DNA of 64,000 bases, taken from the IMG/VR virus record IMGVR_UViG_637000265_000001; one strand, written 5' to 3'. The notes under the pieces are model-generated. The model was not told where the DNA came from and did no database searches. It saw only the letters and a program-made list of their open reading frames with translations. The position numbers were made by a program, and so were the translations under genes. Of the stretch, positions 52,778 through 54,327 are shown in pieces. Source of the stretch: a virus. Taxonomy: Duplodnaviria; Heunggongvirae; Uroviricota; Caudoviricetes. Numbering within the stretch: the first letter of the stretch is position 1; the number at the start of each line of letters is the position of its first letter.

Positions 52778-52809
52778 CGCTCTTACACATCCCAGCCCTG
52801 AAAAAGGGC
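52778..52809 (+). promoter_or_regulatory. nutR (boxA CGCTCTTACA plus boxB GCCCTGAAAAAGGGC)
   Basis: Lambda-like nutR elements directly downstream of cro. Confidence 0.65.
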
Positions 52810-52836
52810 ATCAAATTAAACCACACCTATGGTGTA

Positions 52837-54262
52837 TAATGCCAGTCAGTTAAGCAACTGACTGGCTCTTTTTCGGGGCTGTGGGGTATTTCCAGGGCCT
52901 CTCCTTTACCACTCTCGGGAAGGCCCTTCCCCTTCTCGTCGGTAATTTCACAAGTTGTCCCATACTTGCAAGATCGCGCATCAGCTCCGGTATACGTCCC
53001 GGTGAAGCGCCCTGCAATGTCATCAGCATTCTCATCACCATTCCGCATGATTCTGAGAAACTCAGTTGATTCGGCCAGTAACCTTTCAGATGTTCCGCCA
53101 TTTTAATCATCTGATATCTCACCAGATTATAAGCCAGTAAGACACCCCACAGCTCTTGCTCCACAAGCTCCGGCTTTTTACTTCTCAGCGTCAGCCTGCT
53201 CAGTTGCATCGTCTGTTTTATCTCCCTGTATCCCAGTTCGATTTCCCAGCGATGACTGTACAGATCCGCCATTTCTCCTCCGGGGAAGCGCATGGCGTCC
53301 GTCATCGACGTCAGCAGATGGCAGACTTTTCCTTTGCGCGTCACGGTCAGCAGGCGGGCTGTCACTTCATTTCCCAGTCCCGGCCACTTTTTTCGTGCCT
53401 GCGGGCTGGTTTTCAGCTTCACCAGATGATCGCCTTTACCCAGTTTTCTGAGCTCTTCATATTGCGCTCCCTTTCTGAGAGGTATCATCCAGTGGCGGTG
53501 TTCTCCCGCCAGGCTCCAGCCATTTAACAGTCCCAGTGAGTAATAACCTTTATCCATTAACGTCAGAGTGTTATCGCCGGTTTGTTCTATAAGTTGCTCA
53601 GCAAGCTCATTTTCGCTGTTCTTCATCGTGCCGAAGGCTGCAGCCGTCAGCAGATGGCTGGTCAGTTCCATCTGGCAGACCATTTTGACCTGCGGGTAGA
53701 GCGCCGGGTTCCCGGCATGTGTCTGGCGGGGGAAGGCTGCATCGTTCTCTGGTGTATCCGGTGTGCGCCAGAACACACCATCGATGGCCAGCAGGGTCAG
53801 GCCGCACCAGTGCGGATGCGGCGTGGCGTTATGCCAGAGCTGCGCTGTTTTCGTGAACACGCGGCGGACAGCCTCACTTCCCAGGCGCTGGCGGGCCTGA
53901 ATAACGGCACTGGGGGCAACGAAGGGGCGATTGCCCGGCAGCATGATGTCCAGGCGATTCACAATCTGGTGAAGAGGTTCTTTACGCTCAAGCACCATGC
54001 CAACAATACACCAGACCATCATTTCGAGGGGAAGACGGCGCTTGCGTAGCGTTACAGTACCTGATTCGGCAAGGCAACGAGAGATGAGTTCGGGGGCGAG
54101 GTAATCCCCCAGAGAAGTCAGTGGGTTACGCAGAGAATCGTAACGGGATACCAGATCAAGAGCCTGTCCAATGTGCATAAAAGAATCCGGAAACAAGTGA
54201 GCGTTTCCGGATTCTTACACAGCCACTGGATCGGTCAACTGATCCTTAACTGATCGGCATTA
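52837..54262 (-). mobile_element. IS4, 1426 bp, with 13 bp target-site duplication CACCTATGGTGTA
   Basis: Termini TAATGCC... and ...GGCATTA; direct repeats at 52824-52836 and 54263-54275. Confidence 0.9.
52850..54196 (-). CDS. insG: IS4 transposase
   Basis: 448 aa DDE transposase matching recalled IS4 InsG. Confidence 0.85.
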
Positions 54263-54327
54263 CACCTATGGTGTATGCATTTATTTGCATACATTCAATC
54301 AATTGTTATCTAAGGAAATACTTACAT

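Follow-up and report, generated by a model that had tools for sequence, protein, structure and literature searches.

IS4 between nutR and tR1 in an imm434 prophage remnant of the Shigella flexneri serotype 5 lineage

The 64,000-nucleotide stretch of DNA analysed here (the window) carries, beside the gtrV island of Shigella flexneri 5, an imm434 early region into which a complete copy of IS4 has been inserted just past nutR. We read it as one ordinary IS4 insertion in an Sf6/434-like (P22-type) prophage, whose polarity would be only partial under N and which is not the inactivating lesion, and give this reading a probability of roughly 0.7. Judged from its gene content, the imm434 element cannot make phage whatever IS4 does, since neither an undamaged endolysin gene nor a continuous set of packaging and tail genes has survived, and the decisive damage does not lie in IS4. 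The case is one of ordinary IS insertion into a prophage that is decaying in a published genome, and its importance beyond annotation is little. As to annotation, what lies beside the gtrV island in strains 8401 and M90T is an imm434 early region disabled several times over, whose non-inducibility should not be put down to the IS4 past nutR.

The IS4 copy, its target site and its distribution

The copy aligns with annotated E. coli IS4 copies across its entire length, and its ends, TAATGCCAGTCAGTTAAG and TAATGCCGATCAGTTAAG, share 16 of 18 positions, which agrees with the ~1426-bp size and the 18-bp imperfect inverted repeats of this element (Table 1). The transposase is an IS4-family DDE enzyme, recovered with the IS4-family model NF033592 at E 6.8e-90 and 301 bits (cut-off 115), with PF13006 and PF01609 domains on the identical gene product; its reading frame extends to 54196 if begun at an upstream TTG. 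With IS4 of E. coli K-12, the ISfinder type element of the IS4 family, the copy shares the length, the 18-bp imperfect repeats, the 442-aa DDE transposase, a target duplication of 11-13 bp and 99.7% identity; no structural difference was seen between them, and the insertion site alone is different. It should be added that the two hairpins, one before the transposase ATG and one, terminator-like, at the opposite end, together resemble an insulation of IS4 from external transcription, and that transcripts running from pRE to cI would need to pass both.

The target duplication is perfect over 13 bp, and the repeat search stretches it to 15 bp only because IS4 ends in T...A. In-silico removal of IS4 with one repeat copy left 1062 bp, which are found uninterrupted at 99.5% identity in Sf6 and at 98.8-99.1% in HK446 and Huey. 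Furthermore, the exact 40-mer of the empty site was found in six E. coli prophages fetched via the cII protein. The empty site is restored exactly, and we therefore conclude on simple transposition with no associated deletion. An earlier note on this DNA had described a complete IS4 with 13-bp direct repeats, situated between nutR boxB and the tR1/cII region. Both statements are borne out, the former by the 1426-bp length, the matching ends, the perfect duplication and the restored empty site, and the latter by alignment with lambda and Sf6. In this alignment the duplicated target corresponds to lambda 38295-38307, that is, to the 3' edge of rutB (as annotated) and to the point where tR1 begins in the Sf6 annotation. 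IS4 sits 14 nt past the nutR boxB hairpin, at the tR1 start and upstream of cII, O and the DnaB-type helicase gene; the span 52778-54275 given in the note runs from boxA through the end of the second repeat copy.

The published target consensus of IS4 is AAA-N20-TTT, with which an empirical profile, built from 109 unique left-end flanks in other genomes, agrees. Read outward from IS4, the profile consists of C-N-C-C, G-G around +8 to +10 and a T-run at +16 to +21, with a T frequency of 79-85% at +17 to +19. The insertion site, AAA-CCA[CACCTATGGTGTA]TGCA-TTT, is consistent with it and, written as AAA-CCACACCTATGGTGTATGCA-TTT, is a pseudo-palindrome with an A-run and a T-run ~20 bp apart. By a two-sided target score it ranks third among the distinct sites of the 62.5-kb IS-free window, and in the actual 13-bp register it falls in the top 0.04% of the window. 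The site thus fits the target preference of IS4 itself, and therefore selection is not needed to explain the location. Two unoccupied sites, at 43783 and 49833, outscore the real insertion site on the empirical profile. The nutR-tR1 spacer was also considered as a recurrent hot spot for IS4, and this was rejected since, despite the profile fit, the junction was absent from the complete E. coli genomes and GTDB species representatives searched.

The window is 100% identical to S. flexneri 5 strain 8401 (CP000266) over 14.8 kb and 99.96% identical to M90T (CP037923). The IS4 junctions (both, or the right one at a contig end) were present in eight distinct contigs of the serotype 5 lineage, those of 8401, M90T and six others; an assembly artefact was rejected, as the junctions recur in independent assemblies. 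A search of 5,426 complete E. coli genomes found no IS4, in either orientation, at the nutR-tR1 site, and the exact left junction was absent from the GTDB species representatives. The junctions are confined to the serotype 5 lineage, which argues for a single event inherited within it. A JGI metagenome contig (3300001148; 102.7 kb), presumably Shigella flexneri DNA, matches 14.8 kb of the window at 100% identity and has both IS4 junctions.

Table 1. Features of the IS4 insertion and of the surrounding early region (positions in the window)
Feature	Position	Strand	Basis or remark
N antiterminator, lambda-type, 107 aa, intact	50789..51112	-	lambda N alignment; PF11438 on identical protein
nutL (boxB 51223-51237, boxA 51245-51252)	51223..51252	-	sequence comparison
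cI repressor, 434-type, with S24 peptidase domain	51818..52450	-	domain matches
pR promoter (TTGACA-17-GAAAAT), inside 434-type OR	52498..52526	+	promoter scan; Sf6 annotation
cro, 434-type	52554..52769	+	99% to phage 434
nutR (boxA 52778-52785, boxB hairpin 52795-52809)	52778..52809	+	lambda/Sf6 alignment and annotations
Target-site duplication, left copy, CACCTATGGTGTA	52824..52836		13 bp, perfect
IS4, complete, 1426 bp	52837..54262	- (by transposase; antisense to pR transcription)	99.7% to E. coli IS4
Terminal inverted repeat IRR, transposase 3' end	52837..52854		16/18 against the other end
Terminator-like hairpin at IS4 entry, 11-bp stem and UCUUUUU	52841..52873	+	-18.7 kcal/mol, z -5.9
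IS4 transposase, 442 aa from ATG	52850..54178	-	NF033592; translation MHIGQ...SQSVA, then stop
'Anti-boxB' IS4 sequence, complementary to nutR boxB	52865..52881	+	inverted repeat; MFE fold
C-rich, G-poor untranslated antisense IS4 RNA, candidate Rho loading region	52905..53490	+	C/G ratio
Perfect 14-bp hairpin directly upstream of transposase ATG	54181..54216	-	inverted repeat; -22.5 kcal/mol
Terminal inverted repeat IRL, transposase 5' end	54245..54262		16/18 against the other end
Target-site duplication, right copy, CACCTATGGTGTA	54263..54275		13 bp, perfect
tR1 remainder (termination zone) and cII leader	54276..54327	+	identical to lambda and Sf6; Sf6 tR1 annotation
cII-type activator, 92 aa	54328..54606	+	PF05269 Phage_CII on identical protein
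O-type replication initiator, 274 aa, holds origin repeats	54789..55613	+	protein comparison
Phage DnaB-type replicative helicase	55588..57039	+	TIGR03600, E 4.7e-176

Decay and mosaic structure of the prophage DNA

The late operon runs from Q (59848-60471) through the holin, endolysin and Rz genes to a KilA-N gene (62560-63081), 0.5 kb after which it is cut by an IS3-family element at ~63.6 kb; directly past this cut lie an intact thrW and then proA/proB. The lambda-R-type endolysin is frameshifted into ORFs of 108 aa and 65 aa (61447-61773 and 61727-61924), and its alignment with R of SfV reveals a 1-nt length difference. The matching P22-type structural block is located elsewhere, at 8027-20679, and IS elements truncate both of its ends. 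The large terminase gene has been shortened from the 5' side by ~152 codons; of the gp16-type ejection gene, the last of the ejection genes, about 572 of 911 codons are left, the cut lying at about 20.68 kb; and neither a small terminase nor a tailspike gene was detected in the block. The element thus lacks a contiguous late operon of the kind a complete prophage would have, in which an undamaged lysis cassette accompanies the terminase, head and tail genes. An IS911 copy at 6887-8027, 99.7% identical to that of Sf6, adjoins the structural block.

At least eight IS copies or fragments were counted in the window, and its entire length is pieced together from prophage fragments that meet at IS elements. 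Further IS3-family copies or fragments, as well as an inverted lysis cassette (Rz, lysozyme) from another lambdoid prophage, were noted at 1-1229, 1286-2789, 21141-22514 and 63598-64000. For M90T, 402 IS have been reported, including 21 IS4 and three IS4-like elements on the chromosome (PMC7132871), and IS-mediated inversions around SHI-O were described in strain 8401 (PMC1550401).

The earlier note had also listed gtr among the genes of the prophage that the insertion leaves intact, an attribution that we do not follow. The genes gtrV-gtrB-gtrA are located within a 15-kb SfV remnant (27079-41945, 97.5% identical to SfV), and the SfV homology stops at a 46-bp thrW-derived att core (41882-41927); int, which lies beyond, is HK542-like, and int and the early region together are HK542/Sf6-like. 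Hence gtr belongs to the neighbouring SfV remnant and not to the imm434 prophage, and the window as one prophage including gtr was rejected, as the SfV homology ends at the boundary of the att core and int. The published description of SHI-O in 8401 agrees (PMC1550401). The att core has the same sequence as the thrW 3' end and the attP core of SfV, and its arms are SfV-like on the gtrA side and lead to the HK542-like int on the other; apparently, two different prophages were integrated one behind the other, and the core marks the hybrid junction between them. The intact thrW, ~1.2 kb beyond the right edge of the window, is oppositely oriented, which implies that an inversion took place later.

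The IS-riddled cryptic prophages of SHI-O in S. flexneri 2a and 5b offer the nearest likeness to this arrangement, having kept the serotype-converting gtr genes while the surrounding prophage was fragmented and rearranged by IS elements (PMC1550401). In contrast to the SfII remnant of strain 301, the window keeps a much larger early region, in which cI, N, O, P and Q are intact.

Polarity of the insertion and antitermination by N

IS4 lies inside a transcription unit, between pR and cII, and pR transcripts enter it at the end that carries the 3' terminus of the transposase gene. Upstream of it, nutR has been preserved downstream of cro, with boxA CGCTCTTA and boxB GCCCTGAAAAAGGGC identical to those of lambda, and the remainder of tR1 with the cII leader is now 1.44 kb away from it. 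The partners of nutR are preserved as well. N is near-identical to lambda N and has the arginine-rich motif; nutL stands downstream of pL with a boxB identical to that of lambda and a boxA one base off, a change that is also found in the viable phage Sf6; and pL/OL are intact.

The course of events that we propose is as follows. A single intact IS4 would have transposed once, by cut-and-paste and with a 13-bp target duplication, in the S. flexneri serotype 5 lineage, its target preference bringing it into the lambda-type spacer between nutR boxB and the release sites of tR1. This would have placed 1.4 kb of untranslated antisense IS4 RNA between pR-cro-nutR and cII-O-P. Without N, leaky pR transcripts would be stopped before the replication, Q and lysis genes, and IS4 should reinforce tR1. 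Upon induction, N loaded at the intact nutR would carry the polymerase through IS4, and expression of cII-O-P-nin-Q is expected to be reduced or delayed and not abolished; this read-through we infer from the layout of the region and from the behaviour of related phages.

The claim of the earlier note that the insertion is strongly polar on rightward early transcription can be kept in part. The terminator-like hairpin with its U-tract meets the polymerase at the IS4 entry, ~600 nt of the untranslated antisense IS4 RNA that follows have a C/G ratio of 1.4-2.4 in 78-nt windows, and the promoter scan returned no outward promoter to cII on the plus strand in IS4 or at its cII-proximal end. This part stands, but the strength of the effect during induction does not: nutR lies upstream of IS4 and N, nutL and pL are intact, and therefore antitermination by N should relieve much of the polarity.

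Such relief has precedents. N-modified complexes read through Rho-dependent as well as intrinsic terminators downstream of nut (PMC3526286). Sf6 carries an intact 1.25-kb antisense IS911 in ninG, inside its N-antiterminated pR operon, and is viable with it, and removal of IS911 does not advance late transcription (PMC5630979). The cI-cro-nutR-cII region of Sf6 is 99.5% identical to that of the window; on the other hand, IS911 belongs to another IS family and has its place between the replication genes and Q and not right behind nutR, and Sf6 is a viable phage whereas the Shigella element is a remnant. Insertions between nutR and O/P are reportedly known in lambda, where r32 (IS2) and r14 (IS1), in the cII region, are said to lower the expression of O/P while the phages still grow, N partly overriding the polarity. 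They differ from the present case in the IS elements and exact sites and were reportedly laboratory-selected in a whole phage. N is likewise said to relieve the polarity of IS elements in gal.

Against this background several other readings of the insertion were weighed. Outward promoters borne by IS are known for other IS families, and an outward or hybrid promoter of IS4 could in principle drive cII-O-P constitutively; however, none was found on the plus strand, and the only match within IS4 is the promoter of the transposase on the minus strand (54238-54211), which makes this reading hardly credible. The earlier note went in the other direction and held that IS4 locks the prophage in a non-inducible state. 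For this, IS4 would have to be strongly polar even in induction, block O, P, nin and Q and be the very lesion that keeps the prophage from being induced. The hairpin and U-tract at the entry, the C-rich untranslated RNA and the failure of the scan to find an outward promoter all speak for such a block, and if a prophage that cannot excise kills its host upon induction, the insertion would be of benefit to the latter, in keeping with its fixation in the serotype 5 lineage. However, the insertion lies downstream of an intact nutR with N, nutL and pL preserved, N suppresses both classes of terminators downstream of nut (PMC3526286), and Sf6 grows with an antisense IS inside the corresponding operon (PMC5630979), though a different IS at a different place. 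Moreover, the several other inactivating lesions suffice, and IS4 is not needed to explain the absent phage production. We consider the lock unlikely and do not maintain the claim.

IS4 may also be a phenotypically silent passenger that was inserted after the death of the prophage, which is possible, although we are inclined to doubt it. The window holds numerous other lesions and IS elements, the genome-wide IS load is very high (PMC7132871), and the site matches the target preference of IS4, all of which is consistent with such a history. Still, intact ORFs remain for cI, N, O, the DnaB-type helicase, Q and the holin, expression from pR could matter to the host, and IS4 could have been the first inactivating hit, at a time when the prophage was whole. 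Under the reading that we prefer, of an ordinary insertion with partial polarity, the IS4 block is probably leaky and the genes just named stand intact behind it, and therefore SOS-inducing treatments could switch on part of the locus, a point that may be of use for work with M90T, which is a standard laboratory strain.

Complementarity between boxB and IS4

The 17 nt of IS4 past its terminal hairpin (52865-52881, GCUCUUUUUCGGGGCUG) are complementary to 52793-52809, i.e. to boxB plus flanks, at 17/17 positions with two G.U pairs. In a 131-nt junction transcript both the MFE and the centroid fold pair boxB with IS4 (-54.6 kcal/mol, z -6.0); for the boxB hairpin, the predicted equilibrium probability is 0.996 in the empty site but <=0.005 with IS4. 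Across both strands of the window (128 kb) this segment is the best non-trivial partner of boxB, at -34.7 kcal/mol in comparison with a mean of -9.7 and sd of 3.4. Taken together, these predictions allow for IS4 acting as an accidental anti-nut: the terminal hairpin and U-tract would stop unmodified polymerase, the next 17 nt would strip boxB, and the insertion would become resistant to N. The complementarity of the IS4 end with boxB could in this way undercut the action of N and make the block tighter than expected. The 'lock' of the earlier note would then be right, but for a reason specific to the site and orientation, and the complementarity, if functional, would constitute a natural example of nut-site sequestration.

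We nevertheless regard this as improbable. The observation was made post hoc, and in the modelled folding the boxB hairpin is the favoured structure until ~75 nt more have been transcribed; the competitor is complete only then, and therefore N can bind boxB first. Loss of the boxB hairpin once the complex has been assembled need not matter. It should also be considered that the complementary segment belongs to the coding 3' end of the transposase gene and sets a U-tract against the A-rich loop of boxB, so that the match is probably a coincidence. We thus retain the reading of an ordinary IS4 insertion whose polarity N would relieve in part.

Apart from IS4, a second simple IS insertion is located downstream of a nut site, a complete IS1 of 768 bp (48800-49567) with a 9-bp duplication, GAAAGGGCG, which lies in the pL operon in antisense orientation, with the recT-side genes on one side of it and ral on the other. 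The O gene, finally, differs from that of Sf6 by an in-frame 66 bp (274 vs 296 aa), which may weaken the origin; its origin-like 11-bp repeats (55175-55203) form one cluster of 2.6 copies, whereas Sf6 has two clusters.
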